A stretch of 64,000 nucleotides of DNA from Nitrososphaerota archaeon. GTDB lineage: Archaea; Thermoproteota; EX4484-205; JAAOZP01. The position numbers and the translations under genes were made by a program. Below are positions 1,681-63,395 of this stretch, one piece after another. Positions within the stretch are counted from its first letter, which is position 1. The number at the start of each line of letters is the position of its first letter. Under the pieces are notes generated by a model. It searched no databases. It had not been told where the DNA came from and saw only the letters and a program-made list of their open reading frames with translations. The stretch is taken from contig JAAOZP010000012.1 of the NCBI GenBank assembly GCA_011605725.1, positions 216,821 to 280,820 on the forward strand. Reading direction: 5' to 3'.

Positions 1681-1689
1681 CGCGCGCGC
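1681..1689. repeat. (GC)n palindrome copy, CGCGCGCGC
   Basis: Seen directly; marks the 5' edge of a surface-protein remnant. Confidence 0.9.
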
Positions 1690-1977
1690 TCGGTGAACGT
1701 GTCTGGGTTGCTCAGCTTACTGGATGCGAAGTACGTGTTTAAACAGTGGGTCGGTTTCTTCAATTCTACGGAAAGCTCGGCGCGCGCGAGCCGAGGCTGG
1801 AGACGAGCCATGTACTCTGAGGACTACATGAGCATGATGATCACGGTGGCTGTTATGTCCCTAGTGATAATCGCAGCCATCGTCGTATTCTTATGTAGAA
1901 GAAGGAAAAAGATTCCTTCCCTGCCACCTTCGCCGCCTCCGCCAACTCCTCCGTCGCATTCCACATCTTTTACATAA
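1690..1977 (+). pseudogene. C-terminal remnant of a membrane-anchored surface protein (repeat fragment, TM helix, RRRKK, poly-Pro tail)
   Basis: GLLSLLDAKYVFKQWVG...YSEDY, then a hydrophobic helix, a basic patch and a Pro-rich tail. No N-terminus; begins at a GCGCGC site and contains a second one. Confidence 0.6.
1780..1788. repeat. (GC)n palindrome copy, GCGCGCGCG, within a CTCGG...CCGAG inverted repeat
   Basis: Seen directly. Confidence 0.9.
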
Positions 1978-2062
1978 ATATGTATTCCCCTCTTTTTCCC
2001 ATGTTTTAAGAACATAAGATTTATTAATTCGAAGAATGGTATTTATCCGGTAAATCTGAAAG

Positions 2063-2296
2063 ATGGCAGAAAGTCGAGTAGGTTCGAAAGGAGAGCTATT
2101 TCTACCTAAGAAGATTAGGGAAGAGCTAGGCCTTCACCCTCATACAAAAGTAATCTATAGGGTTGAGGGAAACAGGCTTGTGGTTGAACCAATTCCAAGC
2201 CTTGAGGAAGTGCTGAAGAAACAGCCATCTGTTGAGATCACCCTTGAAGAATTCCATGAATTCAGAAGGGAGCTGTCTAGGAGGGCAGAGTCTTGA
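2063..2296 (+). CDS. AbrB/MazE-family antitoxin (VapB-like)
   Basis: SRVGSKGELFLPKKIREELGL motif; overlaps the downstream PIN gene by 4 nt. Confidence 0.9.
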   Translation: MAESRVGSKGELFLPKKIREELGLHPHTKVIYRVEGNRLVVEPIPSLEEVLKKQPSVEITLEEFHEFRRELSRRAES

Positions 2297-2754
2297 AGAT
2301 ACTGTTAGATACGACGTATCTTCTACCAGCGATAGGCATCTCTCTTAAGGATTTTCCAAGAGACGTTTTAATTATGTTAAGGCGTAAAGGAAATCAGGTC
2401 TTTATAAGTGACATAAGTATCTTTGAGCTTTCAGCCAAAGGTGCTAAATACGTTAGTGCAAAGAAACTCTCTGCTGAAAGGGTGATTGAGGGCATAAGAG
2501 CCATAGTCTTCGATGAAAACATAGTTAAGATACCCATTCATGAAAGCAGGATTCTGCTCACGGCCTTAAGGATTAGGGATTGGCTCAGTGACTTTATAGA
2601 CTGTCTTATAATCTCATCAGCCCTAAATCAATGCGATGCCTTGATAAGTGAGGATACCGATATTCAAAGCCTAGAAGGAAACAGAGCGTTTCACGAATTG
2701 TTAGAAATGATAAATCCTAAATTTGAGATCCGTACACTAGCTGAAATCACTTAA
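2293..2754 (+). CDS. PIN-domain VapC-like toxin
   Basis: ILLDTTYL, SIFE, DFIDCLI and ISED acidic PIN residues; paired with the AbrB gene. Confidence 0.9.
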   Translation: MKILLDTTYLLPAIGISLKDFPRDVLIMLRRKGNQVFISDISIFELSAKGAKYVSAKKLSAERVIEGIRAIVFDENIVKIPIHESRILLTALRIRDWLSDFIDCLIISSALNQCDALISEDTDIQSLEGNRAFHELLEMINPKFEIRTLAEIT

Positions 2755-2979
2755 ATCATGTTGAAGCTCTTTTATTGTTATTGTATTTAGTGCACCGAGC
2801 GATCCTGCAACCTTCGTCTCTCTCCAGCTTCTAAATTCCACCAGCTCTCTCACGAAAAAGCCCTAGTATAAGTCAGCTCGGCCGATATTTGCCGCGCCCC
2901 TGGAAGCTGGACTTCGTTGTGCAGAAGAAGAAAATAACCTAATTTTCCATATTTTTCTCAGCTACCGGTAGGTTTCGCC

Positions 2980-3510
2980 TTATCCAGTGTATAAATCCGG
3001 GTGGAGCTTTCTTGCCATAGCGTATAGAAGAGTGTGTTCCCATGATTCTTGCCTATTTGTAAGCTCATTCGTCAATACTCCTACGGCCCCCATCTTTCTT
3101 TTGGTTCCACTTATGCCAGTAATTTCATCAATCACATCCCCCAGCTCCTTTCCACTCAGAACCTTTTTCACGACGACGTCTGGCAGCTCAATACCACCGC
3201 CACACCCAAGTGCCACTTCGCCTTCCACACCGGCAACAGCACACCAGCCGGTTAGAAAATATCTGCCAGCCCTTCTGGCAACTCCGCCCTCGAGACCAAC
3301 GCCAAGATCGGCTTCAGCTTTTACGATGGCCTCCTTGGCTCGGTATATCGCTCCCTCGGCACACTCCTCGTCCGTTAAAGGCGTGTGCGAAACCTTTGAC
3401 GCGACATCCACTGGAATGATCTCGACGTCGCCGTATATTCTTCTCATAATGTTTTCTGTTGCTTTTATTTTAACAGGATTTGTTGAGCCTACTGCAACTT
3501 TTATTACCAT
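2980..3510 (-). CDS. yjjX: Inosine/xanthosine triphosphatase (non-canonical purine NTPase)
   Basis: VAVGSTNPVKI, GA..RA, GVGLEGG, ELGDVID, GAVGVLT...R motifs. Confidence 0.92.
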   Translation of the reverse strand: MVIKVAVGSTNPVKIKATENIMRRIYGDVEIIPVDVASKVSHTPLTDEECAEGAIYRAKEAIVKAEADLGVGLEGGVARRAGRYFLTGWCAVAGVEGEVALGCGGGIELPDVVVKKVLSGKELGDVIDEITGISGTKRKMGAVGVLTNELTNRQESWEHTLLYAMARKLHPDLYTG

Positions 3511-3572
3511 CGGGCATGATTCCTGAAACAGTTTTAAAAGGCTTACGATTTAAGGAAAACTACATCGCATCA

Positions 3573-3653
3573 TTAGTTATTTCTAAGTTTCTCCGCCATC
3601 TCTTTCTCTTTTGACTTGAAAACTGCCTTGGCTCTGGAAGGCTTTACGGAAGC
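3573..3653 (-). pseudogene. Orphan C-terminal tail of an unknown gene
   Basis: Open frame ASVKPSRAKAVFKSKEKEMAEKLRNN* starting inside the AGCGCGCT site at 3651-3658. Short, so it could be chance. Confidence 0.35.
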
Positions 3654-3658
3654 GCGCT
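3651..3658. repeat. Palindrome copy AGCGCGCT
   Basis: Seen directly; junction between two gene remnants. Confidence 0.9.
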
Positions 3659-3690
3659 ATGGATGGAACCAGATAGGTTAATGTATCACG

Positions 3691-3850
3691 CTAGCCTTCA
3701 GGAAAAACATCCTTTGGAGGATTTACAACCGGTTGTATGACCATCTTCTTACCTTTTAACATCTCAATCTTTATCACCCGGCTTAAGACCATTCTTCTAT
3801 ATGCCTTTAGGGAAAACCATCTGTCCTTTCGTAGATACTTTTACTTCAGC
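3691..3850 (-). pseudogene. Degraded AbrB/MazE-family antitoxin
   Basis: AEVKVSTKGQMVFPKGI*KNGLKPGDK, then a frameshift to IEMLKGKKMVIQPV. Contains an internal stop. Confidence 0.75.
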
Positions 3851-3893
3851 AGTGCACTAAAGGTTAAATTTTAGGGTAGTTTACATACTACCG

Positions 3894-4490
3894 TTGGCTA
3901 GAGGACAAAGGCTCAGGACTCCTCTCGAAAAAGAGGAGGTTGCTCGGCTTAAGGCTGGGGACATCATATACGTAAGCGGAGAAGTGTTTACTAGCAGGGA
4001 TAGGACTCAGAAGTTGATACTGGAGAACCGGGATAAGTTGCCTTTTTCCCCTAAAGGCCTGTTAGAGTTCCACGCTGGCCCGATAGTTAGGAGAGAAGGT
4101 TCAGAATGGAAGGTTGTTTCAATCGGTCCCACTACAAGCTTCAGGATGGAGAACAGTGAATATGGTTTCATTAAAGAGACGGGGATTGCAGGCGTCATTG
4201 GAAAAGGCGGCATGGGAAGTAAAACCAGAGAAGCATGCAGGGAGTTTAAAGCCTTTTACGGAGTTCTTCCAGGTGGAGCTGCAGCTCTGATAGCCAAAAG
4301 CGTTAAACGCATAATTGGAGTTTACTGGCTTGAAGAGCTTAGTGTTCCCGAGGCCATGTGGCATCTCGAAGTCGAGAACCTTGGGCCGATAACAGTTGTT
4401 ATTGATTCTTTCGGAAATGACTTATACGAAGACCTAAGAAAAAGGATTGACGAAAACCTTTCAAGAACTTTGAAAAGCTTGGGGGAATAG
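3894..4490 (+). CDS. Fe-S fumarate hydratase/tartrate dehydratase, beta subunit
   Basis: LKAGDIIYVSG...RD, HAGP, GPTTSFRM, IGKGGM, PEAMW and IDSFGN motifs. Confidence 0.93.
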   Translation: MARGQRLRTPLEKEEVARLKAGDIIYVSGEVFTSRDRTQKLILENRDKLPFSPKGLLEFHAGPIVRREGSEWKVVSIGPTTSFRMENSEYGFIKETGIAGVIGKGGMGSKTREACREFKAFYGVLPGGAAALIAKSVKRIIGVYWLEELSVPEAMWHLEVENLGPITVVIDSFGNDLYEDLRKRIDENLSRTLKSLGE

Positions 4491-4494
4491 AGCT

Positions 4495-5367
4495 ATGGAA
4501 GGCGGAGACCTTAAAGACCATATTGTTGAAGCAATAAGACTCTGCGAAACATCTCTTCCAATCGACGTGAAGAACCGTTTGAAAAAAACATACGAGAATG
4601 AGGATAGAGAGGTTCCGAAGAAAATACTGGGTGCTCTGTTGAAAAATGTTGAAATTGCTGAAAAGGAGGGTAGACCGATATGTCAAGATACGGGCATATT
4701 AACCTTCTACGTTAAGAGAGGCGAATGGAAGGAGAATGAGCTACATAGAATCATCGTTGAAGCAGTTAAAGAAGCCAGTAGTAAAATACCGTTAAGGCCG
4801 AACGCCATAGACTTCCCGTCTAAGAAGAACTCTGGAAACAATACCGGAAGATTCATTCCATGGATTGTCTGGGAGCCAGGTGGAGAACATTTGGAAATAA
4901 CCATAATAGCTAAGGGCGGTGGCTCTGAGGCTGTTTCAAGCCTAAGAGTTTTACCGGCTACTGTTGAGGAAAAAGAGATTTTCCGAGCGGTGCTTGAAAG
5001 CGTTGCTCAAGCCGGGGCAAGACCATGTCCTCCGATTATTCTCGGAGTCGGAATCGGGCCTTCTTCGGAAATAGCTCTTGAACTGGCTAAGAAAGCTGTT
5101 TATCTGCGGCCTCTGGGAGAAAGGCATGAGGACAGTGTTATCGCAAGAATAGAGGAAGAACTCTTAAGAATGGTTAACCGTCTTGATATAGGTGTCCACG
5201 GCTTCGGAGGCTTAACGGCGATGGATGTTCATTTGGAGTATGCGTCCATTCATCCTTCATCCATGGTTGTTGGAGTCGTTGCAAGCTGCTGGGCATTGAG
5301 GAAAGCCACGCTGAAGGAATGCGGCGGTATTGTGAAGATTACAAGCCACAAGATGTATCTAACATGA
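4495..5367 (+). CDS. Fe-S fumarate hydratase/tartrate dehydratase, alpha subunit
   Basis: PICQDTG, PLRPN, KGGGSE, PCPP..GVGIG and SCWA motifs, with three Cys ligands. Confidence 0.93.
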
Positions 5368-5433
5368 TTATTATCTGAAGCGAACATTACTAGCGAAACG
5401 CTTTTATGCAAGATGTGGAAATCAGTTTGGAAT

Positions 5434-16484: not shown

Positions 16485-18350
16485 TCATTTCTTCTCAGCA
16501 ACAGGCTTCTTTCTGGCTAAGTATAAAGTAGCGAAGCATAAAACTGCTAAAGCAACAGCCATGAGGATAAGCATGAGCTTCGAGCTCAATCCTGATCCCT
16601 TTAGTATTACTGATTCATTTCTAATGAGGTTGACATTCCTGCTTTCGACAGAATTACTAACGGTGTAGTTTCCAGTGGGAATGTTTGAGAAAACGACATG
16701 GCCGTTGGCGTCGGTCTTTCCGTTTGCTTGAGAGGCCGATGAAGCTATACGGACATCGATGCCTCCCATGGGCTCTCCGAATTCGTTGACTACGTAAACG
16801 CTTAGGGAATACGTTTTCGTCTTTAATTCGATCATCAACGGATTACTTGTCAGCGGAAGCGGGAATTCAACGCTCATACCAGAGTTCAGGGAAATACTTT
16901 TATTCGTTACATGTAGAGAGCCCTTGAATACCTCAACGTCGTCCTTTTTCACCGAGACTTCATAATCCCCTAGAGCCAAGGTTGCCGTCAATTCGCCGGA
17001 TCCAGAAGCGATGACCTCTCCATCATGTTTCAATTCTACGACTCCATCCAGCAGCCCACCAGTTGAGTTAACAGCCCTGAGCGTCACCTTCCCAAGAACT
17101 ACCGCTATGCTGAAATTGCTCACCCTTGACAATCTCTTCCCGCTGGTCTCAAGCACCAGCACGTAGATTCCGGGCGACTCGGGCCTATAGCTTATCGTGA
17201 AGCTCCCGTTTGGAAACGGCCTTAGCCTAAGGACCTTGACTTCCCTCTCGCCTTGGTAGATGTGTAACGTCAACTCAGCGGTTTCTGGCTCCATAGTGCC
17301 GATGAGAACCCCATTAACGATTATTTCCCTCCCGATACTGACCACTGATTCTTCAATCCATGACCTTAAAGTACATACGCTCGGCACTACTGTCTGAAAC
17401 CTCCCGTACGCAACTGACCCAATGTAAGTGTCATTGCCAGGCCATTCGGCCTTTATGAAAACATCCCCGAAAACCCTCGGCTTCCAGACCATGGAGAAGA
17501 CTCCGGTGGTGGCTTTCAACTCGGCAAACAGTGTCCATGAGATGTTGTCAAGCGAATAGCATAACGAGACGTTTTTGGCGCTTGGAGGATAAAGGGTTCC
17601 GTTTATCTTAATATCCTCAGCTCCCGCAATAATCACGGCCGGGCTTACGGTTAAGTTAAGGATTGACACTCCTTTTACATGAAGAGCATACTCTGGTGTT
17701 GAAGCAGACTCGTACTCCGCATCCCTCGGGAAGTAGGCTGAAACCTTGTAGAGGCCCAGAAGCCTTGGCGTAAAATTGAACGAGAAGATTCCGTTAGAAG
17801 AAACCGATAATTGATACTCCTTCAAATCGCCTTTGGGATCCTTAACCTTAAAGTATACTGGTGAAACGCTGGGACTGACTTTCCCGGTTATCATGACGCT
17901 AGCGTTAACGACCGCCTCGCTTGGAACGTTGAGCTGAATGCTGACCGGCTTCTTTTCCGGCGGAGGTGGTGGGGGCGGGGGAGGCGCTGCGGAAAGATAA
18001 ACATTTATTAGTAAAGCTTCCCCATGTTGTGATGTTCCAGAGCTACTACCCGAGTAATCGCCCTTGGATGCGCTGACGGTCACTGTCACTGGAACTGCGT
18101 TGACATTTAACGTAGTATCGTAGTATCCATCGTTATCAGTTGTCCCTGACCAAGAATCCCCACCTCCGGAGACATGGACGGAAGCCCCTACTGCCTTGCT
18201 TCCATCGGGCATGTATACATACCCATACACAGGCACCGACACCCCTCCCCTTACCTTGATGGTATTTATCGCGATTGAGACGAATATTGAGATGAATACC
18301 AATGAGGAGACTAAATAGAATGAAAACCTTCTAATTTTATCTGCATACAT
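16485..18350 (-). CDS. Cell-surface protein with carboxypeptidase-regulatory-like/Ig-like domains, poly-Pro linker and C-terminal TM anchor
   Basis: N-terminal hydrophobic signal, GTTDNDGYY and KTDANGHVVF..GNY motifs, AAPPPPPPPPP linker, C-terminal TM followed by RKK. Overlaps the end of the C25 gene. ORF track starts at 18371. Confidence 0.8.
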   Translation of the reverse strand: MYADKIRRFSFYLVSSLVFISIFVSIAINTIKVRGGVSVPVYGYVYMPDGSKAVGASVHVSGGGDSWSGTTDNDGYYDTTLNVNAVPVTVTVSASKGDYSGSSSGTSQHGEALLINVYLSAAPPPPPPPPPEKKPVSIQLNVPSEAVVNASVMITGKVSPSVSPVYFKVKDPKGDLKEYQLSVSSNGIFSFNFTPRLLGLYKVSAYFPRDAEYESASTPEYALHVKGVSILNLTVSPAVIIAGAEDIKINGTLYPPSAKNVSLCYSLDNISWTLFAELKATTGVFSMVWKPRVFGDVFIKAEWPGNDTYIGSVAYGRFQTVVPSVCTLRSWIEESVVSIGREIIVNGVLIGTMEPETAELTLHIYQGEREVKVLRLRPFPNGSFTISYRPESPGIYVLVLETSGKRLSRVSNFSIAVVLGKVTLRAVNSTGGLLDGVVELKHDGEVIASGSGELTATLALGDYEVSVKKDDVEVFKGSLHVTNKSISLNSGMSVEFPLPLTSNPLMIELKTKTYSLSVYVVNEFGEPMGGIDVRIASSASQANGKTDANGHVVFSNIPTGNYTVSNSVESRNVNLIRNESVILKGSGLSSKLMLILMAVALAVLCFATLYLARKKPVAEKK

Positions 18351-21345
18351 CTGTTGTCTCAACCTCCACAAACTTCTTCGGAGAAGTTAGGAAAACGAAG
18401 TATCCGAAACCTTTCTCTATTTGGAAGTTTTTCGGTTTGGGGGCACTGGGCACATAACTTTCATATCTTTGGCTTGTCGAATTCCATCTGTCTATGTGAT
18501 TTACCACGTTAATCCCTATGGCTTCTGCCATATCCTTAGCGGAATATCCGGATGGAGGGTTGAAAATGAGGGCAATTAAATTATAATATTTCACTAGATC
18601 CCTCACATAAAACCTCACTAGGAGCCAATCGCTCGTTCCCTTAGTATCGTTAGTCCTTATGTAAATTTTATGGCATCCATCAGCATAGGTTGAACCGTTG
18701 AAGCTTATTCTGATGAACTCTATGCTTGAATCCCAAGAGCCGTCTATAGGATAAGGTATCACAACTGAGGAGTTAACGTCGTCAACCGCGTATCTTGCAC
18801 CAGTAATATTGTTGGGAGAAATTATTTTAACTGTTAGGTTAACTATGCCTGCTCGAACAGTACTGTTTAAAAGTATTAACGTTAAGTTTGCAACCTCGAC
18901 GGTGAAGTTGGCTGTTATCGCGCCTGGTCCGTTTATAGTAGCCATGGTATTCGGCGAATTGGGATTGGCTATTGTTATCTTCGGAGTACTGGAGAACCAG
19001 TTCCTGAAAACGCAGCCGAGACTAGGGGTGGCGGATATTTGGATTGTTAAACTCTCGTTATACCAACCTGATCCGGAGGGGGTTACAATGCCGTAGCCTG
19101 GCGGCTTAACGTCGAAGGTTACATTATACTGTTTTTTAAAGAAGGCTGCTACAGTGGTATTGTAGCTTGGAACAATATAGTTATGACTCTGTGCTCCGCC
19201 GCTGCTCCAACCATACCAAGCATACCTTGTCCAGTCATCTAAGTAGAATGGGGAAATCGCCTCTAACAGATGGATTGAGCCTGCTTCCCAGATGAATTTA
19301 GCGGGCGTCGTAACAGGCTGACCATCAACCTTGACCAAGCTCGATCCTTGAGGATTAGAGTCGATCGTGACTTCCGACATAGCGTTGAACAACGATACAC
19401 TCGGATCACCGTAAAGATTGAAGTCGAACAGATTCATCCACCAGACAGCATCGTTACTGGGAAGCAGGCTCTTAGCCTCATAGAGAGCAACCCCAGTACT
19501 AAGCCTATTCTTTAACAGTTTCTCGACATAGCGATAACCTATTTCAACATTATCTGCAAGCATCCTTGGCCTCCAGTATCCAACTATGTACCAGCTTACT
19601 CTCGAGGATGAAACTGTTGCTATTGCACCATTTTTAAGCAGAGAATAGCCAACGTTATTCCTGTCCTCTGGATACCCGTTGTTACAGGAGCATTGGAATG
19701 TGAGTGAAGGAGCTGAATCGTTAAGGCCAGGAGTATCAGAAGAGCTTAAAAACGATACCCAACTCATCTCGCTAGACTCCGGCACACCGTCACCATCGTC
19801 AAAACCCCAATATTTTCTATAGGTCCCTTGAGAGCTTCCGTGGCCAAACCAGAATACCACCCCATAACCCTTCTTCCACTCGTTAGCAACATTATCCCTT
19901 GTCAACGGTGCGGAGTAGTAGGGTGCAGTCTCAGGCACCGGGTCTCGACCAGCCCTTTCGTAAAGCACGTAGTGTGACCAGCCTGAGGGGAGAATGTTCT
20001 CAACTATGTATTTCGGCAGGTCTAATCCGTCAGTTCTTGGCCAGCCGGAATTGTCTTCATTCGCATAGTTGCTTATGGCTACTGGAAGCATTACCCTGTT
20101 TCTCCAATCTGTCCCTGAAAACACGTAATACATCGTCTTTCGAAGAATCCTATCTAGCGTAGCGTAATCGTTATCATAAACAGGTATTCTTCCCACATAC
20201 ACTTCCGGGGTGAAGTCTACTCCAGTATCTTGACCATACTCCCCGTAATAATTATCTCCATCAGTATTCCAGTTTCCAGTAAGGTCAGCGTAGAAATAGT
20301 CTGTAGGAGCTTCATTATAACCCTGAATCCCCGGCCAGCACATCATCATTGGAACATCGCCGTACGAGTCATATGGATCGCTCGGATCATCAGGATCAGG
20401 ATTACCTATGAGAAGAACATATGTAAACCCCAGTGTTAGATAATTATTCTTCAGCCAGTCCCTTATTTTTACTGCCCTCTGCTGGCCTGATGCCGACCCG
20501 TAATCATCTTCCGTAACCATTTTAACCTTGAAACCCTTAATACTCTGAAGATGGTTCACGAAATTGTTTAGCTCCCTGCTTCCCGTTTTTATAGCGTTTG
20601 TGGTGATTATAATATAATCGTATTGTGAGCCCAATGTTTGAAAAGACTGGGAATACCACTCTTTAGCATTGTTCCAGTTTACAAATTGTTTCTCAGCAAT
20701 TTTCTCAACCATCGTGTTTTTAACAATGACTACTCGTCGACCTGTAAGCCGATAGGTGATCTTGAAAGATACGTACCGATGTATCTTAAGCCTGCCTTTT
20801 AACGGGTTATACTGCACGGGGTTATAGTGTATCCTTGCGAAAACATATATTCCTCTGTTAGAAATCTGGAAAACCTCCACAACTTTCTCTGGATAATACT
20901 CCTCCACTTCATATACGAGAAGATTCTTACCATCACGTATCTTCTTGCCGGAACCCCATTCCAATTTTTCACCGCACGCTAAGGGTGGTGCCGGCATTAC
21001 TTCTGCAGTAACGTTAACCTCATAGTTTTCATCTCGTAGAACATCTATAGCCACAGTGCTCGTGTTTACATCTGGTGGAAGTAATACATCTAAAAACTTA
21101 GTAGGAAGCTCCGGGTTGCCGGGTTCCCCAGAACTGTCGAAACCATCAAGCTCAATCATAAGATAACCTTTATAATTGGAAATTTTTGGACTGCCGCAAC
21201 CTATGCTTAATTCTACTTCACCATACTGTGCCCCAGAAACCATTATAGTAGGCATCCACCTTACAGTGAAAACAGCCGAGAAACAGAATTCGATTAAAAT
21301 TAGAGTAGCAAGTAGCCCATTGCCCTCTACACGCCTATCCACCAA
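18337..21345 (-). CDS. Secreted C25-family (gingipain-like) cysteine peptidase with propeptide and C-terminal accessory domains
   Basis: Signal helix; propeptide GEPGNPELP; YIIIT, YVLLIG, TDYFYADL, EVYVGRIP; catalytic FGHGS and CSCNNG; LYGDP. Confidence 0.93.
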   Translation of the reverse strand: MVDRRVEGNGLLATLILIEFCFSAVFTVRWMPTIMVSGAQYGEVELSIGCGSPKISNYKGYLMIELDGFDSSGEPGNPELPTKFLDVLLPPDVNTSTVAIDVLRDENYEVNVTAEVMPAPPLACGEKLEWGSGKKIRDGKNLLVYEVEEYYPEKVVEVFQISNRGIYVFARIHYNPVQYNPLKGRLKIHRYVSFKITYRLTGRRVVIVKNTMVEKIAEKQFVNWNNAKEWYSQSFQTLGSQYDYIIITTNAIKTGSRELNNFVNHLQSIKGFKVKMVTEDDYGSASGQQRAVKIRDWLKNNYLTLGFTYVLLIGNPDPDDPSDPYDSYGDVPMMMCWPGIQGYNEAPTDYFYADLTGNWNTDGDNYYGEYGQDTGVDFTPEVYVGRIPVYDNDYATLDRILRKTMYYVFSGTDWRNRVMLPVAISNYANEDNSGWPRTDGLDLPKYIVENILPSGWSHYVLYERAGRDPVPETAPYYSAPLTRDNVANEWKKGYGVVFWFGHGSSQGTYRKYWGFDDGDGVPESSEMSWVSFLSSSDTPGLNDSAPSLTFQCSCNNGYPEDRNNVGYSLLKNGAIATVSSSRVSWYIVGYWRPRMLADNVEIGYRYVEKLLKNRLSTGVALYEAKSLLPSNDAVWWMNLFDFNLYGDPSVSLFNAMSEVTIDSNPQGSSLVKVDGQPVTTPAKFIWEAGSIHLLEAISPFYLDDWTRYAWYGWSSGGAQSHNYIVPSYNTTVAAFFKKQYNVTFDVKPPGYGIVTPSGSGWYNESLTIQISATPSLGCVFRNWFSSTPKITIANPNSPNTMATINGPGAITANFTVEVANLTLILLNSTVRAGIVNLTVKIISPNNITGARYAVDDVNSSVVIPYPIDGSWDSSIEFIRISFNGSTYADGCHKIYIRTNDTKGTSDWLLVRFYVRDLVKYYNLIALIFNPPSGYSAKDMAEAIGINVVNHIDRWNSTSQRYESYVPSAPKPKNFQIEKGFGYFVFLTSPKKFVEVETTDVCR

Positions 21346-24732: not shown

Positions 24733-25017
24733 AAATTCGCTCCTCACCCATTTTTTCCCCGGTCTTCGACCATTTGCTTAACCTCGCTTAAGCTCCCCTT
24801 CAATATAAATCTTCAGCGGAACGTTCTTGGCCTCGTGCAGCTCTATCGCAAGCCTCACATAGTCCTTAGCCCCTTCTCCCGTGAGACCTTTTCCTATGAA
24901 AAGACGTATCCCGATCTTCTTGCCATGCGATCTATGATAATATGATAATCCACATATGTGAAGAAATCCTCTATCTGCCCTAAATCTATCCCTAATCAGC
25001 TTGAAATTCGCTCCTCA
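24733..25017. repeat. 14-bp direct repeat AAATTCGCTCCTCA (24733-24746 and 25004-25017) flanking a gene remnant
   Basis: Identical 14-mers seen directly. Between them a minus-strand broken frame reads KKIGIRLFIGKGLTGEGAKDYVRLAIELHEAKNVPLKIYIEG. Confidence 0.6.
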
Positions 25018-25375: not shown

Positions 25376-25385
25376 AGCGCGCGCT
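25376..25385. repeat. Perfect palindrome AGCGCGCGCT
   Basis: Seen directly; upstream of the DUF3467-like gene. A decayed copy, AGCACGCACACT, lies at 25290-25301. Confidence 0.92.
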
Positions 25386-25829: not shown

Positions 25830-27176
25830 ATGGTAAAGATGAACGTTAATACAGCTAAACATGAAGGTGTCAGGCTTGGTATTCTAGGTGGCGGGCTCTC
25901 CGGAATGGCTTATGCCTACTTTTCCTCCCGAATTGGTTTCAACACTACTGTGCTGGAAAAAAACGTTGCTCCCGGTGGTTTGATGAGGAGCATTTTTGAG
26001 GAGGGGTTTACTTTCGACACTGGCGGTTCACACGTAATTTTCTCAAAAGACACTGATGTTCTAAGCTTTATGCTTAGCCTTTTAGGAAATAACAGGGTTG
26101 AGAACAAGAGGAATACTGCAATACTCTACAAAGGCAGGCTTGTAAAATATCCTTTTGAAAACGGCTTATCTGACTTACCGTTTCTGGAAAACCTTTCGTG
26201 TCTCCTGCATTTTCTCTATGCCAGGATGTGGAGAAAACGCAACGCTGGAAACCTTAGAGAATTTTTCTACAGTTCTCTGGGAAGAGCTATTTCCGAGAAA
26301 TACCTGATCCCATATAATGAGAAAATCTGGAAGATGAGCATAGATGACATGTCTCTCGGCTTCATAGGCAGAATCCCTAACCCTAGCGTAATGGATGTTG
26401 TCAAGGCTTCTCTTGGGATAGGTTCTGAGGGATACGTTCACCAGCTTTTCTTCCACTACCCTAGAAAGGGAGGGATCCAAGCACTCATAGAATCCTTGAG
26501 AGACAGGGTGCAAGGCGATGTTTTAACAGGCTTCGAGGTGAAGCGTGTCGAAAAAGAATCAGGTGAATGGGTTGTTTCAAACGGTAGTGTAGAGAAGGTT
26601 TTCGACCGAATCGTCTGTACAATTCCTTTACATGATGCTGCCAGAATATTCGATGTTCCCCAGGATGTGAAGAGGGATGTTGAGAGATTAAGGTTCAACT
26701 CTCTTGTGACGGTTGCAATAGGGCTGGAGGAGCTTAACGTTAAGGGTTTAAGCTGGATGTATATTCCTGACAGGGATATTCACCCGCATAGGGTTAGTTT
26801 TCCCTCCAACTTTAGCCCGGAAAACGCTCCTGAAGGCAGGTCGTCCATCCTTGCAGAGATAACTGTCAAGCCTGATGATCCTCTCCTTAAGACTAGTAGC
26901 GATGAGGTTGCGAGCATAGTGGTTGACGAGCTCGATAGGCTTAAGATTCTTTCTAAGGACAAGGTTATCTTTAAGAATGTTTTTCAACACAAGTATGCGT
27001 ATCCTATTCTAGATTCGAATTATCAAGAATGCGTTGAAAGAATAAGAGTCTTCTTTAACAGGATGGGTGTAGAGCTTGTTGGAAGATTTGCAGAGTTCAA
27101 GTATATTAACATGGACGACGCTATAAGAAACGTGGCAAACCATCTGGGCATACAGAGGATAAGCGAATATTCATAG
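25830..27176 (+). CDS. FAD-dependent oxidoreductase (UDP-galactopyranose mutase-like/protoporphyrinogen oxidase-like)
   Basis: ILGGGLSG, PGGLMRS, FDTGGSH, PYNEKIW, YAYP and GRFAEFKYINMD motifs. Start placed at ATG 25830; ORF track starts at 25725. Confidence 0.85.
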   Translation: MVKMNVNTAKHEGVRLGILGGGLSGMAYAYFSSRIGFNTTVLEKNVAPGGLMRSIFEEGFTFDTGGSHVIFSKDTDVLSFMLSLLGNNRVENKRNTAILYKGRLVKYPFENGLSDLPFLENLSCLLHFLYARMWRKRNAGNLREFFYSSLGRAISEKYLIPYNEKIWKMSIDDMSLGFIGRIPNPSVMDVVKASLGIGSEGYVHQLFFHYPRKGGIQALIESLRDRVQGDVLTGFEVKRVEKESGEWVVSNGSVEKVFDRIVCTIPLHDAARIFDVPQDVKRDVERLRFNSLVTVAIGLEELNVKGLSWMYIPDRDIHPHRVSFPSNFSPENAPEGRSSILAEITVKPDDPLLKTSSDEVASIVVDELDRLKILSKDKVIFKNVFQHKYAYPILDSNYQECVERIRVFFNRMGVELVGRFAEFKYINMDDAIRNVANHLGIQRISEYS

Positions 27177-27184
27177 CACGCACT
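27175..27184. repeat. Degenerate palindrome copy AGCACGCACT at a TAG stop
   Basis: Two G>A changes from the consensus; fills nearly the whole spacer between convergent genes. Confidence 0.65.
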
Positions 27185-31040: not shown

Positions 31041-31530
31041 TATGTTAGAAGAGTGCCTATAGCCTCACCAGCCCCCACGTTCGAAGAGACTACAGGCGTA
31101 GCCATAATCCCAATATCGCTGCGAGCAATGTTTCCTGTTGCAGCACTCATGCATTCCCAGACGCTTGGATGTTTCAGGAGAAATCTTACGGTCGAGTTTT
31201 TCACAGCCTTTAAAAGATCAGGATAGTAGTTGAACGCTGCAGCCATTGCTAGAGAGCATGATTTTGCCCATACTGGGCCTCTCCAATAAACATCTTCCTC
31301 AAAACCAGGTTGGCTGGGAGCGAGAGTATAAACCCCGTAGTCCCCGATCAGTCTGAGAAAATTCTTTCTAGCTTGCCGAGCCTTCTCGGGATCAACTAGT
31401 CCGTATGCAAATGGGAAAAGCCCATCCACACCTATCCTAGTGTCTAGAGAACCATCCTGGTGGAGTACACCGTACCAGTGTAAGTCTTCATCCCAAAGGA
31501 TTCGATTCATGGCCCGCCTAGTTTCCTCAG
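30992..31530 (-). pseudogene. C-terminal fragment of a GH63/MGH1-like (alpha/alpha)6 glycoside hydrolase
   Basis: AEETRRAMNRILWDE...YWRGPVW...WECM..TG; the frame begins in the GCGCGCGCG run. Confidence 0.75.
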
Positions 31531-31538
31531 CGCGCGCG
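31530..31538. repeat. (GC)n palindrome copy at the hydrolase breakpoint
   Basis: AGCGCGCGCGA seen directly. Confidence 0.92.
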
Positions 31539-33155: not shown

Positions 33156-33165
33156 AGCGCGTGCT
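33156..33165. repeat. Palindrome copy with one mismatch, AGCGCGTGCT(A)
   Basis: Seen directly; intergenic between convergent genes. Confidence 0.75.
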
Positions 33166-34496: not shown

Positions 34497-34666
34497 ACCT
34501 ATACGCCCTCTGGAAACGAGCCTCAACCGATTTTCAGCTTCGCAACATATTAAGTTTTTCGCGAAACATCATTTCCCCATCTTTTTGAAATCCTGATCAC
34601 TATCAGAAGAAAGGTCTTAAAAAGTCGTCCAGCTAAGAACGCGTGTTGTTGAACCAGCCTGCTACT

Positions 34667-45029: not shown

Positions 45030-45037
45030 CGCGCGCT
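45030..45037. repeat. Palindrome copy CGCGCGCT
   Basis: Seen directly; just after the stop codon of the V4R gene. Confidence 0.88.
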
Positions 45038-45117
45038 TATCAGATTATCGTTTCAAGCATAAGGCTAAACTTAGAGAATGATATTGGCGGTTATGCCGCA
45101 TGCCCAGCTGCTCAGCG

Positions 45118-56041: not shown

Positions 56042-56140
56042 CCTGGGATTTCAGGTGAGAGGGCGATATATTGGCTTTATGCTCAAGCAATCATAGCGCG
56101 TAGAATAGCTTAAATATAGGAGGGCTGTCAACGAGCTACA

Positions 56141-57331
56141 GTGATGACGGGAAAAGTTGTTTCAACATACTCAGGCGGCTTGGATTCCACACTGATAACT
56201 ATATTGTTGAAAGAGAAGTATGGCTATGACGAAGTAATTCCTGTTCTTGTCGACGTGGGTCAGGGAGAAGGGGAGATCAGAATCGCGTATGAAAGAGCTG
56301 AGAAGCTGGGTTTAAAGATACGTTTTATAGATGCTAAGCATGAGTTCGCCACTGAATACATATTCAGATGCATTAAGGCTAACGGGAGCTACGGGGGCTA
56401 CCCGGTTGGAACCTCTATGACCAGAGTCCTGATCGCTTCTAAGGCTGCTGAAATAGCTAAGAAAGAGGGTGCTGAGGCTGTTGCACACGGTTGCACAGGT
56501 AAGGGTAACGACCAGTTCAGAATGGAGGTTGCAGTTAAATACGTAGATCCAAACCTTAAGGTGATAGCGCCGGTTAGAGAGCTAAATCTCTCAAGATTCG
56601 AAGAGGAGGAGCTTCTTAGAAAACATGGTATTGAGCCTAAGAAGCCTAAGGGAAAGCTAGGTGGAGACGTGAACATGTGGTCGCACTCTATCGGAAGCGG
56701 ACAGGTTGAAGATCTTTACACGCAGTATCCTGAAGACTATATTTGGGCTGTTCATCCGGAGAAGGCTCCGGACAATCCGCAGAAAATTCAAATAACTTAT
56801 GAGAAGGGTGTGCCAGTCGAGGTAGACGGGATAAGAGACCCGGTTGAAATAATATTCTACCTTAACAGGATTGGTGGGCAACATGGTGTGGGGAGAATAG
56901 ATATAATCGAGGACGGGATACTGGGTCTAAAATCAAGAGAGCTTTACGAGGCTCCGGCTGCAACAATACTCTTAAGCACTCATGCAAACCTTGAACAGTT
57001 AACCCTTACGAAGGAGCAGTTGAGAGTGAAAAGGGAGATAGACAAGATTTGGGCTGAAATAGTTTACCATGGAATGTGGTTCCACCCGTTGAGGAGGGAT
57101 CTTGATGCTTTCATAGATTCTACGCAGAAATATGTTTCAGGTAGGCTTGACGTGAAGCTTTACAAGGGGAACGTGGAGGTTGTTGGAAGGGAATCTAAAT
57201 ACAGCCTTTTCTCGCCTGAACTAAGGTCTGTTAAAAAGGCTGGTTTTGATCAGAGGGATGCTACTGGGGCTGTTAAGCTCTATGCTTTACCCTACCAACT
57301 TTACAGCAAGAGGGAATATGAAGAAGAATAG
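56141..57331 (+). CDS. argG: Argininosuccinate synthase
   Basis: YSGGLDS, HGCTGKGNDQFR, N.W..S, KSRELYEAP and LYKG motifs. Confidence 0.97.
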   Translation: MMTGKVVSTYSGGLDSTLITILLKEKYGYDEVIPVLVDVGQGEGEIRIAYERAEKLGLKIRFIDAKHEFATEYIFRCIKANGSYGGYPVGTSMTRVLIASKAAEIAKKEGAEAVAHGCTGKGNDQFRMEVAVKYVDPNLKVIAPVRELNLSRFEEEELLRKHGIEPKKPKGKLGGDVNMWSHSIGSGQVEDLYTQYPEDYIWAVHPEKAPDNPQKIQITYEKGVPVEVDGIRDPVEIIFYLNRIGGQHGVGRIDIIEDGILGLKSRELYEAPAATILLSTHANLEQLTLTKEQLRVKREIDKIWAEIVYHGMWFHPLRRDLDAFIDSTQKYVSGRLDVKLYKGNVEVVGRESKYSLFSPELRSVKKAGFDQRDATGAVKLYALPYQLYSKREYEEE

Positions 57332-57339
57332 CGCGCGCT
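57330..57339. repeat. Perfect palindrome AGCGCGCGCT overlapping the argG TAG stop
   Basis: Seen directly: ...GAA TAG CGCGCGCT. Confidence 0.92.
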
Positions 57340-58641: not shown

Positions 58642-59790
58642 TTATTCTATAGTCTTGCTCCACATTTCTTTAGCAAGCCTACCTTCATACTTCATCAGGC
58701 TAAGCCTCTCCCTTGCGTCTTCACGCCTAACACTATGCTTCTCAAGAAACCTCTTAACCTTCTCCACCAGAATCTCCTTTATCTCTCCGCTCAGCATCCT
58801 TCCCGACGAGTACTCCTCACGGATCCTCATGAGCTTCTCATCGTCCTCCTCAAAGAAGAAGTGGAGCCACTGGTATGGCACGTCTACATCCGGGTTTCCA
58901 CCGAGCCTCCTGTGTTCCTCAACAGTTGGCTGTCCTCCTGAAAAAGCCTGAAATATTTTTCTCCGAATACTCTTCTCATCCTCGTTAAGGTAGATAGCAC
59001 TCTCTGGTTGAGAAGCGCTCATCTTGCCAGAGGGCCCGGTTAAGGGAGGGAGAAACTTGCAGTGGATAGCTGCAGTCTTATGATAGCCGAAGCTTTCAGC
59101 AATATCCCTCTGAATCCTCCAATATGGATCCTGGTCTATCGCAGCCGGTATTAAACACCGTCTCTTCTCGAAGAAAGTCACGCATATTTGGAAAGCAGGG
59201 TAGAAAATCATGCCTATGTTCGTGCTCGCGTCAAAGCCGAAAACAGCTCTGACCCAGCTGAAATTAACCTTCTTAGCAATCTTCAGAACCATAGGATACA
59301 TGTTACGTACATACTCCATATCTTGAAATATGAAAGTCCTGTCAGGGTCAAACCCTACTGCAGCAATATCAAGCGCGTTCTCATAGGACCATCTTCTGAC
59401 ATCCTCGATAGTAAGATTCCTGCTTTCCTCAAGGAATTTCTCGTCATCCGTCAGCTCAATGTAAACGTTGCATCCAAACCTGTCTTGAAGCCATTTAGTG
59501 AAGTAGAATGGAATAATGTGTCCCAGGGTCATGGGTCCGCTTGGCCCCCTGCCAGTGTAGAGGAAGAACCCCCTCCCAGCCTCATAATCATCCAGAACCT
59601 TGTCTAGATCCCTGTGGGAGAAGAAGATGCCTCTCCTAAGGAGAAGATGGTCTTCTCCAGCTAGTTTAACAAGCCTGTTTTTAAGCTCTGAAGTAAGAGG
59701 CTCAGTCCCAAATTCCCTTATCAGCTTCTCATAGTCTACAACGCCTTCTACAGTCCAAGGAGTAACCTTGAACTCGTCCTGCTGCACCAT
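58642..59790 (-). CDS. trpS: Tryptophan--tRNA ligase (archaeal/eukaryal type)
   Basis: VTPW, YTGRGPSG.MTLGH, IDQDPYWR, KMSAS and AFSGG motifs. Start placed at MVQQDEF; ORF track extends to 59847. Confidence 0.97.
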   Translation of the reverse strand: MVQQDEFKVTPWTVEGVVDYEKLIREFGTEPLTSELKNRLVKLAGEDHLLLRRGIFFSHRDLDKVLDDYEAGRGFFLYTGRGPSGPMTLGHIIPFYFTKWLQDRFGCNVYIELTDDEKFLEESRNLTIEDVRRWSYENALDIAAVGFDPDRTFIFQDMEYVRNMYPMVLKIAKKVNFSWVRAVFGFDASTNIGMIFYPAFQICVTFFEKRRCLIPAAIDQDPYWRIQRDIAESFGYHKTAAIHCKFLPPLTGPSGKMSASQPESAIYLNEDEKSIRRKIFQAFSGGQPTVEEHRRLGGNPDVDVPYQWLHFFFEEDDEKLMRIREEYSSGRMLSGEIKEILVEKVKRFLEKHSVRREDARERLSLMKYEGRLAKEMWSKTIE

Positions 59791-59935
59791 TTCCGCCAGA
59801 AAAGCCTCGTTAAGACTTTTTAAAGCTTGAATTAAATCCCCGGCCACGGCTAAATTAATTGGCTAAACACCCTTTTGAACAATATTTATTCACTATCCAA
59901 AATGTTTTTTAACAACAGAATCCGTTTCGAGAGGG

Positions 59936-60337
59936 ATGAAGTATAGGCTTATGGACCTGCTTGCCTGCCCTATTGATAAGAATTTCCCCTTGAAACTAAT
60001 AGTTCTTCAAGAAGAAGAGAGAAGCATTGAGTTTAAGCATGAGAACGTAGTGTGTGAGCTATACTGTGGTCTAAAGGCAGCCTATGTTAAAGACACTATC
60101 CTCAGCGCCGAGGTTTGTAACAGATGCATGAAGATGGAGATACTAAACGGTGTTTTAATATGCTCCAAGTGCAACAGGTGGTACCCGATCGTGGACGAAA
60201 TTCCACAGCTTCTACCCGACGAATTGAGAGAGAAGGATGAAGACCTCTCCTTCTTAAAAAGGTATGCTGAAAAGATTCCTAAAAACATACTTGAGGAAGG
60301 GAAGCCTTTTAACATCGTGACGACAACCGAACGCTAA
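59936..60337 (+). CDS. Trm112-family methyltransferase activator
   Basis: LMDLLACP.DK.FPL...G.L.C..C.RWYPI.DEIP.LLPD. Confidence 0.92.
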   Translation: MKYRLMDLLACPIDKNFPLKLIVLQEEERSIEFKHENVVCELYCGLKAAYVKDTILSAEVCNRCMKMEILNGVLICSKCNRWYPIVDEIPQLLPDELREKDEDLSFLKRYAEKIPKNILEEGKPFNIVTTTER

Positions 60338-60458
60338 ACTTCTCTGAGCCGCATCCCAGACACACATAAATGCTTGTGGCTGGAGAAAGAACCGCTAAGC
60401 ATTAGAAGACCTTAAACATGCGGAGGCTAAGCTTATTCTTTTTCATCCAAGTGGGCTG

Positions 60459-61163
60459 CTAAATATTTCTAATCTCACAGACTTCGAATAAAAGCTTTAT
60501 TTCGTCACGTATTTTTTCAAGCTCACCCGCCTGATAAACCTGTTTCTCCAGAAAAGATTTATCAAGGGTTTTAGTCGGTTTAAATTGTTGAATAAAGAAC
60601 CTTTTCGCGCCTTTAAGCCACTCGGCTATAGCCAAAATATCCTCCTTTGCAAGGAGCTCAGGAACAACTGTTGTCCTAAACTCATGCTCTGGAAAAGCCT
60701 TAACCATATTCACGCTTTCAGCAATCTTGTTTAAATCAACCTTCACCCTTACCACGCTCTCGTATTTTTCTAACGGTGCTTTAACATCCATAGCAATGTA
60801 GTCGACAAGCTTCTCCCTTACGAGTGTGCTCAACATCTCAGGATTCGTCCCATTTGTATCCAGTTTAACAGAATACCCTAGGTTCCTAATCCTCTTGACG
60901 AAGGCTGGAAGATCATTGTGAAGAGTCGGTTCTCCACCAGTTATGCACACACCTTCGAGAAAACCTTTTCTCTCAACAAGAAAGCGAAACACGTCTTCCT
61001 CAGGAATAGGCGGAGTTCCGTCATCCGTGACTAGCTCCGGATTATGGCAGTAGGGGCAACGGAAGTTGCAGCCGAACGTGAATAGTGTGCATGCAACTTT
61101 ACCCGGGTAATCTATCAGACTCAGTTTCTGTATTCCCTTTATTATCAAGCCCTGACCGCACAA
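60459..61163 (-). CDS. nrdG: Anaerobic ribonucleotide reductase activating protein (radical SAM)
   Basis: SLIDYPG, GCNFRCPYCHN, TGGEPT, KLDTNG, MDVKA and EFRTT motifs. Confidence 0.92.
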   Translation of the reverse strand: MCGQGLIIKGIQKLSLIDYPGKVACTLFTFGCNFRCPYCHNPELVTDDGTPPIPEEDVFRFLVERKGFLEGVCITGGEPTLHNDLPAFVKRIRNLGYSVKLDTNGTNPEMLSTLVREKLVDYIAMDVKAPLEKYESVVRVKVDLNKIAESVNMVKAFPEHEFRTTVVPELLAKEDILAIAEWLKGAKRFFIQQFKPTKTLDKSFLEKQVYQAGELEKIRDEIKLLFEVCEIRNI

Positions 61164-61213
61164 GTTTCAAAAGGGAGATTTAAGGTTTATTCTGAAAGAG
61201 ATCAAAGGCTCTT

Positions 61214-61226
61214 CGCACGCGCGCTA
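61214..61226. repeat. Palindrome copy CGCACGCGCGCTA
   Basis: Seen directly; at the 5' breakpoint of an ATPase remnant. Confidence 0.88.
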
Positions 61227-61640
61227 TCAATGGAAATAGCAGCGAGCTTGAGGGGGGAAGGACACTATCATATTATATTTATCCGTTCAGCTTTAAGGAG
61301 TTCCTGAGGGCCAAGGGATTCAAAATAGGAAAACATCTTTCATCTTCATAGAAATCCATATCTCTGAATCTTCTTCAGAAGTATATAAGGGGGAGCTATC
61401 CTGAGGCGGTACTCTTCGAAGAGGAGAAAGAGAAAATATGAAAGAGATATTTGACGTTACGATTTATAGGGATATTATAAAGAGGTTTAAGGTTAAGAAC
61501 ATAAGAACTCTGAGATTGCTGGTTAAAGGTCTGATGTCTTCCACACACTTTTCAATCCATAAGTTTTACAACTATCTCAAGTCCCTAGGAATAAGGGTTG
61601 CAAAAATACTATTTACAACTATGTAGAGCATTTTTTAGAC
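61224..61640 (+). pseudogene. Internal fragment of an AAA/DUF4143-family ATPase
   Basis: LSMEIAASLRG/RTLSYYIYPFSFKEFL...GSYPEAV...IYRDII.RF...FSIHKFYNYLKSLG..V.K/NTIYNY, with stops and frameshifts. Confidence 0.85.
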
Positions 61641-61749
61641 TCGCCCTCAACTCCCTGGCCTCATGCTGAAGCTAAACTCAGCCCCGCACCGTGCGGCACG
61701 TTGTATAGGCCGCTCAGCCCATGCTCTATTATGTGCGTAGCCCAGTCCT

Positions 61750-62030
61750 CAATCTCCATAGCCAGGAGGAGTTCTGTCCTACTCCAGAGCTGCCATCCGA
61801 AGAAGGCTCTCTCGGGATGAGGCATCATGCCCGTCACGCTACCCTTCTTATTACATATTCCAGCAATATCGTATGTTGAGCCATTCGGGTTGTACGGGTA
61901 CCGGCTGTTAGCGTCATCCCCGCTAGGAAGAACGTATCTGAAGACAATCGCCTGTTCTCTATAAGTCCTTCCAAGGTATCTTCAGATGCTAGAAACCGTC
62001 ATTCAGCATGCTTATCGCAATTTCTATGAT
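61750..62030 (-). pseudogene. purQ: C-terminal fragment of phosphoribosylformylglycinamidine synthase subunit PurQ
   Basis: IVFRY...[33 protein letters not shown], preceded by a broken (S)HAE-G-RF motif. Confidence 0.88.
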
Positions 62031-62032
62031 TT

Positions 62033-62042
62033 AGTGCGCGAT
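62033..62042. repeat. Degenerate palindrome copy AGTGCGCGAT
   Basis: At the 5' truncation point of the purQ fragment, just downstream of the ATPase gene. Confidence 0.65.
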
Positions 62043-62059
62043 GCTTGCGGTATAACTCA

Positions 62060-63316
62060 CTATATATCAATACTTGCCAGAAAGAGGGGCACCTCTAATC
62101 TAGTCAATACTAAAACGTCCTTAAGATGCTTCGGCTTAATCCAGCTTCCGAAACCTGTCTTAACCTCTATTCCAAACTGCCTATGATTGATTATGGCAAC
62201 GACATCAACCTCCGTTTTATTCCTCCAATAGAAGACGGGATACTTCCTAGCTAAATGAGCGGCTACCACTGATTCAAGCTTATCGTCTTCAATCGGCTTC
62301 ATATTCACCAATTCGCAAACAGTGTCGTAGAGAAATGGATCCGTTACATGTATCTTCTTATTCTTCCTATAGATGATCTTAGAATCAACGTCTAGGAAGT
62401 TGAGTATTTTAACTACGAACAGTTTTTCAAGATCCTCAACGTAAGCCTGCGTCGTATGAGGAGAGGATACTGATGTCTCTCTTGATATGCTCAGCCAACT
62501 TATTGGAGCCAGCCTAGCACCCACTACGTAGGCGAGAATTTCCTTCATATAAGCTTCGTTTCTACCTAATTTCGCAAAGTCGTTTCTCAACCAGTCTATG
62601 TATGTTTTCCTAGTCTCGAAAGATATTCTGCCCCTAGTATGCATCTCCTCTATAGGGAGTGGGAACCCGCCGGTTAGCAAGTACTTGTTGAAAAACTCGT
62701 TAAGGAGATCCTGGTGCACTCTGTTAGTTCTCATCGAGTATTCTATTTGAGCAAGGCCTCCCCTTGCTGTTTCCAGATTGCTCAAAGCTTTCAAGTATTG
62801 AGAAAAGCTCAATGGATGGAAAACAATATCTCTCCCCCTACCCCTCCTCCCAGGGAAATACTCTTTCTGTTTCAATATCTCCAAGCTGGCGGACCCGCTG
62901 ACCACGATAACATCATTTCTGAAAACACCCTGGTCGATACGTATCTTAAGGGCCCTATGCCATTCTTCAACGAAAGTAATCTCGTCCAGGACGATGAAAG
63001 AAGATTTTATCCCGCTACCGTTCCTAAAGCCAACGTAGTTATCTAAAACCTCTCCGAGCTCTTTAAAACTCGTAAGCTCTTCGCAAGAGAAGTAAAAAAT
63101 CGCCCTCGGATCAACCCTCGGAATGAGAAACTTGTTAATCCATATCTTTAAAGCCGTGGTCTTACCCACCTGTCTCGGCCCAACCAGGAAGTTTAAGGAA
63201 AAAGGCTCGAAAGAAAACTGCTCAACCACCGGAGGAACCCACTTAACCCCTTTTTTCTCCCACTCCTCGAAAGTCCTATCGGATTCCCGATACCACCAAG
63301 GGTTCTGCGATTCCAT
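62060..63316 (-). CDS. AAA-family ATPase with DUF4143/PD-(D/E)XK-like C-terminus
   Basis: QNPWW, GPRQVGKTT, LDEI, SGSA, GRRG, GGFP, KK....DP and EVD...IEVK motifs. Confidence 0.93.
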   Translation of the reverse strand: MESQNPWWYRESDRTFEEWEKKGVKWVPPVVEQFSFEPFSLNFLVGPRQVGKTTALKIWINKFLIPRVDPRAIFYFSCEELTSFKELGEVLDNYVGFRNGSGIKSSFIVLDEITFVEEWHRALKIRIDQGVFRNDVIVVSGSASLEILKQKEYFPGRRGRGRDIVFHPLSFSQYLKALSNLETARGGLAQIEYSMRTNRVHQDLLNEFFNKYLLTGGFPLPIEEMHTRGRISFETRKTYIDWLRNDFAKLGRNEAYMKEILAYVVGARLAPISWLSISRETSVSSPHTTQAYVEDLEKLFVVKILNFLDVDSKIIYRKNKKIHVTDPFLYDTVCELVNMKPIEDDKLESVVAAHLARKYPVFYWRNKTEVDVVAIINHRQFGIEVKTGFGSWIKPKHLKDVLVLTRLEVPLFLASIDI

Positions 63317-63379
63317 TGCAATCTTATTGCAAATGATTATTTATAAACTTTTGCATCATAAATGCAATAATTTACTGCA
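63317..63379. promoter_or_regulatory. Five TGCA boxes around the TATA-like element of the ATPase promoter
   Basis: TGCA at 63317, 63328, 63352, 63363 and 63376, flanking TTTATAAA at about 63340. Confidence 0.5.
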
Positions 63380-63385
63380 CATGCT

Positions 63386-63395
63386 AGCGCGCGCT
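63386..63395. repeat. Perfect palindrome AGCGCGCGCT
   Basis: Seen directly; between the ATPase promoter and the end of the upstream gene. Confidence 0.92.

Follow-up and report, generated by a model that had tools for sequence, protein, structure and literature searches.

The window analyzed here is a 64,000-nucleotide stretch (positions 216,821 to 280,820) of contig JAAOZP010000012.1 from a hot-spring Ca. Brockarchaeota archaeon, whose ArgG is 94–97% identical to that of named metagenome-assembled genomes. The host genome (G000) comprises 2.23 Mb at 93% completeness, and its closest genome (G002) is ~90–95% identical in the best blocks. Scattered through the window is a short palindrome with a GCGCGC core, which a sequence-only reading of this DNA had taken for a HIP1-like motif and the scar of a sequence-specific recombination process that shuffles genes. 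Here, we report that the motif is new filler at DNA joints and argue that it is likely to be written by a stand-alone primase with a structured RNA.

GCGCGC has 16 overlapping matches in the window that fall into exactly 10 runs, all recovered within one base of the positions given earlier, and the three perfect copies of AGCGCGCGCT are at 25376, 57330 and 63386 as reported. Coding sequence makes up ~85% of the window, yet nine of the runs fall outside called genes (≥100 aa) and the tenth overlaps the argG stop codon, which bears out the earlier impression that no copy interrupts an intact coding sequence. The genome-wide count against a Markov background that the sequence-only reading had called for agrees: GCGCGC is the top over-represented hexamer (z=20.9, maximal-order Markov model), AGCGCGCGCT is ~100-fold above an order-3 model, and of its 88 copies in G000 (84.5% coding), 79 are intergenic and 3 lie at gene edges, leaving 6 within called coding sequences. 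The A(GC)nT family has 59, 88, 20 and 2 copies for n=3, 4, 5 and 6, and across the genus the count of the 10-mer ranges from 0 to 118. These Markov tests rule out a composition artefact. Around the G000 copies no bias for convergent or divergent gene orientation was found and nothing is conserved in the flanks outside the T-A, which rules out a terminator or a transcription-factor site. The sites in the window, with what alignment to relatives reveals at each, are as follows.

1681–1690: scar; 7 non-parental bases stand for a 5.65-kb segment of G002
1780–1788: scar in a gene remnant; 7 bases in place of 23 bp of G002
3651–3659: scar; the aligned block ends there and unrelated sequence continues in G002
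25376–25385: perfect 10-mer scar within a 341-bp patch; G002 has 8.4 kb there
27175–27184: near-copy, probably an old scar; common to G002, outgroups having longer, different sequence
31529–31538: scar; GCGCGC (6 new bases) for 1164 bp kept in G002, G007, G010 and L209
33156–33165: near-copy scar with one transition; ~1.45 kb more in G002, G008 and G016
34638–34647: decayed near-copy, probably an old scar; ~0.95 kb more in G007, G008 and L211
36788–36796: scar; spacer shorter than and unlike that of five relatives
45030–45038: scar; 10 bases in place of 201 bp of G002
57329–57339: perfect scar over the argG stop codon; absent in all syntenic relatives, spacers a few bases shorter
61218–61226: scar at the left edge of a ~550-bp ATPase-like remnant not in L001, L003 or L005
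63385–63395: perfect scar, assigned by motif match
19062–19246: parental unscarred state; 185 bp in the intact 1002-aa gene at 18337–21345, (GC)6T in strain contig L210
39307–39525: parental unscarred state; 219 bp, with AGCGC instead in G002

At the 31530 site, three further relatives carry the long form and the scarred allele is therefore derived; strain L210 has a 90-bp intermediate allele there that carries an internal scar of its own. Near-copies had also been listed in similar positions. This holds at 33156, 34638, 27175 and 6362, at which relatives have longer, different sequence, and fails at 56095, where the difference is point variation in place within a promoter region that can be aligned.

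Comparison of insertions and deletions over 757 kb of G002 yielded 21 clean events. Ten of these have filler at the joint and 7 of the 10 fillers carry the motif, one of them inside an intact G000 gene, against a chance level of ~1% per 18 nt of non-genic DNA; a second in-gene scar replaces 19 bp with 9. The remaining 11 are microhomology or direct-repeat joints without filler. At the clean joints in the window, the motif is on neither parental end in G002. Contig L210 is 99.6–100% identical to the window and yet has (GC)6T for the 185 bp of the 1002-aa gene, and another sample (run X9) has (GC)5T in place of 335 bp of the window's contig; the recurrence of such joints in independently assembled DNA, from a strain and from a different sample, rules out assembly chimeras. 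Copied fragments of 50–200 bp elsewhere in G000 have the motif at their bounds and not at their sources. On either side the scars show the polarity TA-GC, and they are often trimmed so as to stay in register with the parental end. Altogether, the motif is a scar written de novo at deletion and capture joints, the parental ends of which lack it. A transposon excision footprint is disfavored because the joints lose host DNA, their flanks lack conservation and captured fragments bear a scar at each end. The idea of a gene-shuffling scar survives in part: the motif is a joining scar tied to gene loss and capture, and it sits at synteny breakpoints in alignments with relatives, the test proposed in the sequence-only reading; sequence-specific recombination is the part that falls. 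The further claim that pairs of motifs bracket self-contained modules is mostly wrong, since relatives show an unchanged order for argG, the oxidoreductase, the ceramidase-like gene and the ABC pair; most of the bracketed genes are residents that lost their neighbors to deletion.

Two other differences in the window have no scar. At 24747–25017, G002 cleanly lacks a segment (257 bp) flanked by a 14-bp direct repeat, a difference that resembles a precise insertion or a repeat-mediated deletion. Within the gene at 16485–18371, 70 bp (17883–17952) are absent from strain L210 with no filler, a strain-level microhomology joint.

The candidate enzyme is encoded outside the window. G000 has a second, stand-alone archaeo-eukaryotic primase (AEP; C7:378918-379793, P0001), its canonical PriS being encoded separately. 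The 82 homologues of this family (~260–280 aa) have an invariant DxD, SGxxGxH and third Asp as well as a Cys/His knuckle; by structure comparison the fold is that of PriS and also resembles LigD polymerase domains. Motifs I–III and the fold place the family in the AEP superfamily, and scores of 37–55 bits against PriS cut-offs of 143–577 place it outside the replicative PriS proteins. Within Brockarchaeota the second AEP occurs only in motif-bearing genomes: it is intact in G000, G002, G006 and G016, broken in G007, G008 and G012, and was not found in seven motif-free Brockarchaeota, nor in G009, G010 and G013. Among 301 genomes of the Bathyarchaeia class 21 are rich in the motif, and 4 of the 21 have a match to the AEP family at 1e-15.

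Several other proteins were considered. No reverse transcriptase (RVT_1/PF00078) was found in 17 genomes. Ku was not found in G000, G016, G113 and G127, is present in G043 and does not track the motif, and neither do the extra AEPs in G113, G137, G300 and G181. ATP-dependent ligase was rejected, with two copies in motif-positive and motif-negative genomes alike; all five tested Brockarchaeota have two full ATP-dependent DNA ligases whatever their scar status (G000:C9, C4; L125, L120). Comparison of 813 kb of G113 (C1:1-813000) with G000 gave no further candidate. In the neighborhood of the primase gene (L128:5495-10751, on G000:C7), tfb is divergent from dinB, the radA paralogue and the stand-alone primase, followed by a HEPN-nucleotidyltransferase pair, and a C-box-side near-copy of the scar motif lies immediately ahead of the dinB start. 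The overlap of the radA paralogue with the primase is kept in five other Brockarchaeota, and the dinB link is not seen in G002. As a partner, the radA paralogue was set aside: it is linked to the AEP in Brockarchaeota only, and the hits in Bathyarchaeia are ordinary radA.

A conserved ~90-nt RNA-like element spans the 3′ end of the AEP gene in both archaeal classes. Its 5′ part consists of a strand ending in a CUGA box, a hairpin and a RUGAUGA-like box; its 3′ part is a short unpaired linker ending in UAAAA, followed by a stem that carries a second pair of boxes and is capped by an apical loop. The alignment used to judge the stem comprises related sequences and was itself fitted to the structure; in it, pairing in the stem reaches 90.6%, both partners have changed at 9 of 11 pairs, and G-U is tolerated. 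The 5′ strand and the apical loop are predicted to form a pseudoknot, and own loops beat swapped ones (p<1e-4, 14 distinct 5′ strands). No match to Rfam was found at E≤1. These comparisons show, at the level of sequence, a conserved and structured element; we infer that it is transcribed and bound by the primase and, at its K-turn boxes, by L7Ae. No RNA sequencing run was found with the searched stretch of the window. A model built from gene-linked copies finds new copies only in motif-rich Bathyarchaeia, with none in 34 motif-free genomes, and the Brockarchaeota model is strong in G000, G002, G006, G009, G010 and G016 and near noise in motif-free genomes. The searches scored 58–117 of several hundred candidates per genome, so that absences of the RNA are weak. 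The best copy in G000 is at C12:18842-18929, and most solo copies are truncated. Scarred genomes (L339-L361, L362-L387) have dispersed, often 5′-truncated solo copies, up to five per genome, many of which start at a scar.

The unpaired linker connects this element to the scars. In Brockarchaeota it reads GCGCUA before the A-run, the reverse complement of which, TAGCGC, is half of the scar. Across Brockarchaeota and Bathyarchaeia, GCATA accompanies (ATGC)n scars, AGCTA accompanies (TAGC)n and GCGCGTA accompanies TACGCG, and the A-B-A′ patterns of the putative templates, GC-GC, AU-GC-AU and UA-GC-UA, give periods of 2, 4 and 4 as in the scars. With the RNA masked, the predicted type is the commonest on all seven contigs or loci that have both AEP and RNA (44/64 sites; exact permutation p=1/1260). 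It leads as (ATGC)n on L337 (10 sites in 7 kb), (TAGC)n on L164 and L338, AGCGC on L333 and L166, TTGCGC on L336 and TACGC in G043; the runs of L336 and G043 were known before the template, and those of L337, L164 and L338 were counted after it. No site is present on L334 and one on L335, two contigs with a template that does not yield a self-complementary copy. TACGCGCGCG (TACGCG type) occurs 75 times in G043 versus 5 in G000, and TTGGCGCGCG (TTGGCG type) is enriched in two genomes with a GCGCCAA copy (p=0.001). TATGCATGCA was predicted beforehand and occurs 91 times in G118 (control 0), where two sites beside truncated RNA copies had been seen before the prediction, 20 times in G159 (control 2), and 2–4 times in G113, G000 and G182. 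Copies with GCGCUA in G043 and G127 explain the TAG-type scars of these genomes. Sequence comparison thus shows that the scar changes between genomes together with the putative template segment.

Other scar types and primases were also seen. An 813-kb stretch of G113 (C1:1-813000; L293-L332) has two scar types, 141 copies of TAGCGCGCGC and 72 of TAGCTAGCTA, which suggests successive cassettes with different templates. A second primase subfamily (N-terminal WxRLWxKQF; L336, L278 of G242, L285 of G170) accompanies TTGCGCGCGC-type runs, of which G242 has 86 versus 30 for the control; L336 is the only place where the RNA of this subfamily was found. A further family of small stand-alone primases (~255 aa; L274:52-819 of G246, L184 of G140) has no RNA, and no relation to scars was seen.

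We consider it likely that the palindrome is joint filler written by a telomerase-like ribonucleoprotein composed of the stand-alone PriS-like primase and the ~90-nt structured RNA. We envision a scenario in which a free DNA 3′ end pairs by 1–4 bases with the UA(AAA) end of the template and the ribonucleoprotein copies 4–6 template bases, such that GCGCUA would extend the end to TAGCGC. Realignment on the A-B-A′ pattern, as described for telomerase and DRT10 (bioRxiv 10.1101/2025.10.16.682844), would then lengthen the tail, with period 2 for GC-GC and period 4 for AU-GC-AU or UA-GC-UA. Because the repeats are self-complementary, any two tailed ends could anneal, much as archaeal PriSL anneals ends through 2–4 GC pairs (PMC12019639), and host polymerase and ligase would finish the joint to give (T)A(GC)nT(A). 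Joining without homology would delete DNA or capture fragments of 50–200 bp or whole genes, and the intergenic bias would arise because joints inside genes are purged by selection. In a broader formulation, which we also hold to be probable, a primase fold independently evolved telomerase-like RNA-templated repeat addition, and programmable, self-complementary tails serve as universal sticky ends for homology-free joining and leave a lineage-specific signature, which can be read from deletions and captured genes of Brockarchaeota and Bathyarchaeia. Repeated cassette fragments in several genomes suggest that the cassette is gained, breaks itself and is lost repeatedly, with its scars outlasting it.

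Several observations weigh against a primase–RNA writer. No match to the AEP family at 1e-15 was found in 17 of the 21 motif-rich Bathyarchaeia, four of which have short AEP remnants broken by stops, and the protein alone is therefore a weak marker; G113, a single contig, has no detectable AEP gene and truncated RNA only. In G000 the RNA behind the intact gene (C7) is decayed and the good RNA (C12) follows a broken gene fragment. G169 shows no predicted scar and neither does G182 (4 sites), a blind search of 18 TTGCGC-rich genomes at 58–117 scored candidates per genome found no matching template, and G000 has no more T-runs ahead of TA than expected. The compared genomes are related rather than independent. 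Motif runs slip by 2 bases within populations, so run-length variation is no proof of realignment. Finally, with the 11 microhomology or direct-repeat joints and 3 with other filler, 14 of the 21 clean indels have no scar; scar joining is therefore one of at least two routes, and scarless microhomology joining runs alongside it.

Of the other explanations, the most serious keeps the same AEP and RNA and changes the product: host end joining (PriSL, ligase) would capture, at breaks, repeat oligonucleotides that are free or primed de novo and that might act against viruses, as in DRT10, or prime an element, and the scars would be a by-product. AEPs are able to start synthesis de novo, all of the covariation data fit equally well, the gene is patchy and lies among mobile and defense-type neighbors, and PriSL can anneal ends that share a few GC pairs. 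However, the polarity of the scars on both sides and their in-register cut-back are expected of primer extension, and the AEP has no PADLOC match and no conserved effector neighbor; we therefore regard this possibility as unlikely. A different catalyst on the same RNA template, such as host PriSL, PolY/DinB or an undetected reverse transcriptase, with the AEP as an accessory or passenger, seems to us distinctly improbable. In its favor, and against our preferred model, RNA copies occur in many scarred genomes in which no intact AEP is detectable, and dinB adjoins the cassette in G000. Against it, the RNA overlaps the 3′ end of the AEP gene in two archaeal classes, the catalytic motifs are invariant, the 17 genomes searched lack RVT_1, the link to dinB and radA does not extend beyond Brockarchaeota, and the solo RNAs are mostly truncated.

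Very little probability attaches to a reversed order of events, in which the scars come from another process and the matching segment originated as one of them, or in which the element acts as single-stranded DNA. Truncated copies L347, L352, L389, L393 and L394 do begin exactly at a scar, and primases that recognize DNA hairpins exist (RepB′-ssiA). Full-length copies, however, hold the segment at one fixed position with 1.5–2 repeats, also on scar-free L334 and L335, the G-U pairs and C/D-like boxes indicate RNA, and the other process would still need to switch its sequence between lineages. The original proposal, in which sequence-specific recombination between pre-existing copies of a HIP1-like site shuffles cassettes, is hardly credible. 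The HIP1 element of cyanobacteria is conserved from genome to genome, within and outside coding DNA alike, and is linked to methyltransferases (PMC5861425, PMC4390886). Like HIP1, the present motif is a short, highly iterated palindrome that is strongly over-represented genome-wide and patchy among relatives, but it is absent at orthologous sites, depleted from coding DNA, variable in length and born at joints, and C5 methyltransferase (PF00145) was not found in G000, G016 and G113. Tyrosine recombinases and integrases do not track the motif; serine and IS110 recombinases were not searched. A recombination site should be present on both parental molecules beforehand, whereas the motif is missing from the parental ends even inside intact genes; the strain-level empty sites contradict such a site, as does the synteny of the bracketed genes. 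One of the 21 indels arose by deletion between two 11-bp repeats that each contain the motif, and secondary recombination between scars may therefore occur. As the main route, recombination between pre-existing HIP1-like sites is excluded.

The proposed primase–RNA system is reminiscent of telomerase (TERT with TR) and DRT10, which similarly copy a short template that lies within a structured RNA bearing a stem and a pseudoknot, realign on an A-B-A′ pattern and make a repeat that, judged here by covariation, follows the template across homologues. It would not be a member of either group because no reverse transcriptase is involved: the candidate catalyst has the archaeo-eukaryotic primase fold, and its product would be self-complementary and lie in chromosome joints rather than being telomeric or a protein-primed free cDNA. 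The SLATT effector of DRT10 is also missing here. End joining by PriSL (PMC12019639) and non-homologous end joining by LigD or Prim-PolD share with it a primase-family polymerase at breaks, terminal transfer and annealing by 2–4 GC pairs. The present family is nonetheless separate, small and without PriL, it has an RNA attached and no Ku was found in G000, and its filler is fixed and lineage-specific, unlike indels of 1–2 bases. Archaeal box C/D and H/ACA guide RNAs have boxes that form K-turns or K-loops. The CUGA and RUGAUGA-like boxes of the element could do the same, but the order D-C-linker-stem-D-C, the long-range pseudoknot, the fusion to a primase gene and the lack of an Rfam match set it apart.

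A description of this system was not found in the open-access literature searched, and the AEP–RNA pair matches nothing found there, in Rfam or in PADLOC, which holds even if its product is a free oligonucleotide. If the model is correct, telomerase-like chemistry arose a second time, on a scaffold other than a reverse transcriptase, and archaea that lack Ku possess a way of joining ends in which the filler is fixed and encoded by an RNA. Rearrangements in uncultured genomes could then be dated and attributed by means of the scar, and an enzyme of ~270 aa with an RNA of ~90 nt and an exchangeable template could become a programmable tool for end tailing or ligation.

Elsewhere in G000, outside the window, a set of 10-mers around GTAGAATCTCAAAGGAG occurs in ~90 copies, as from a CRISPR repeat array.

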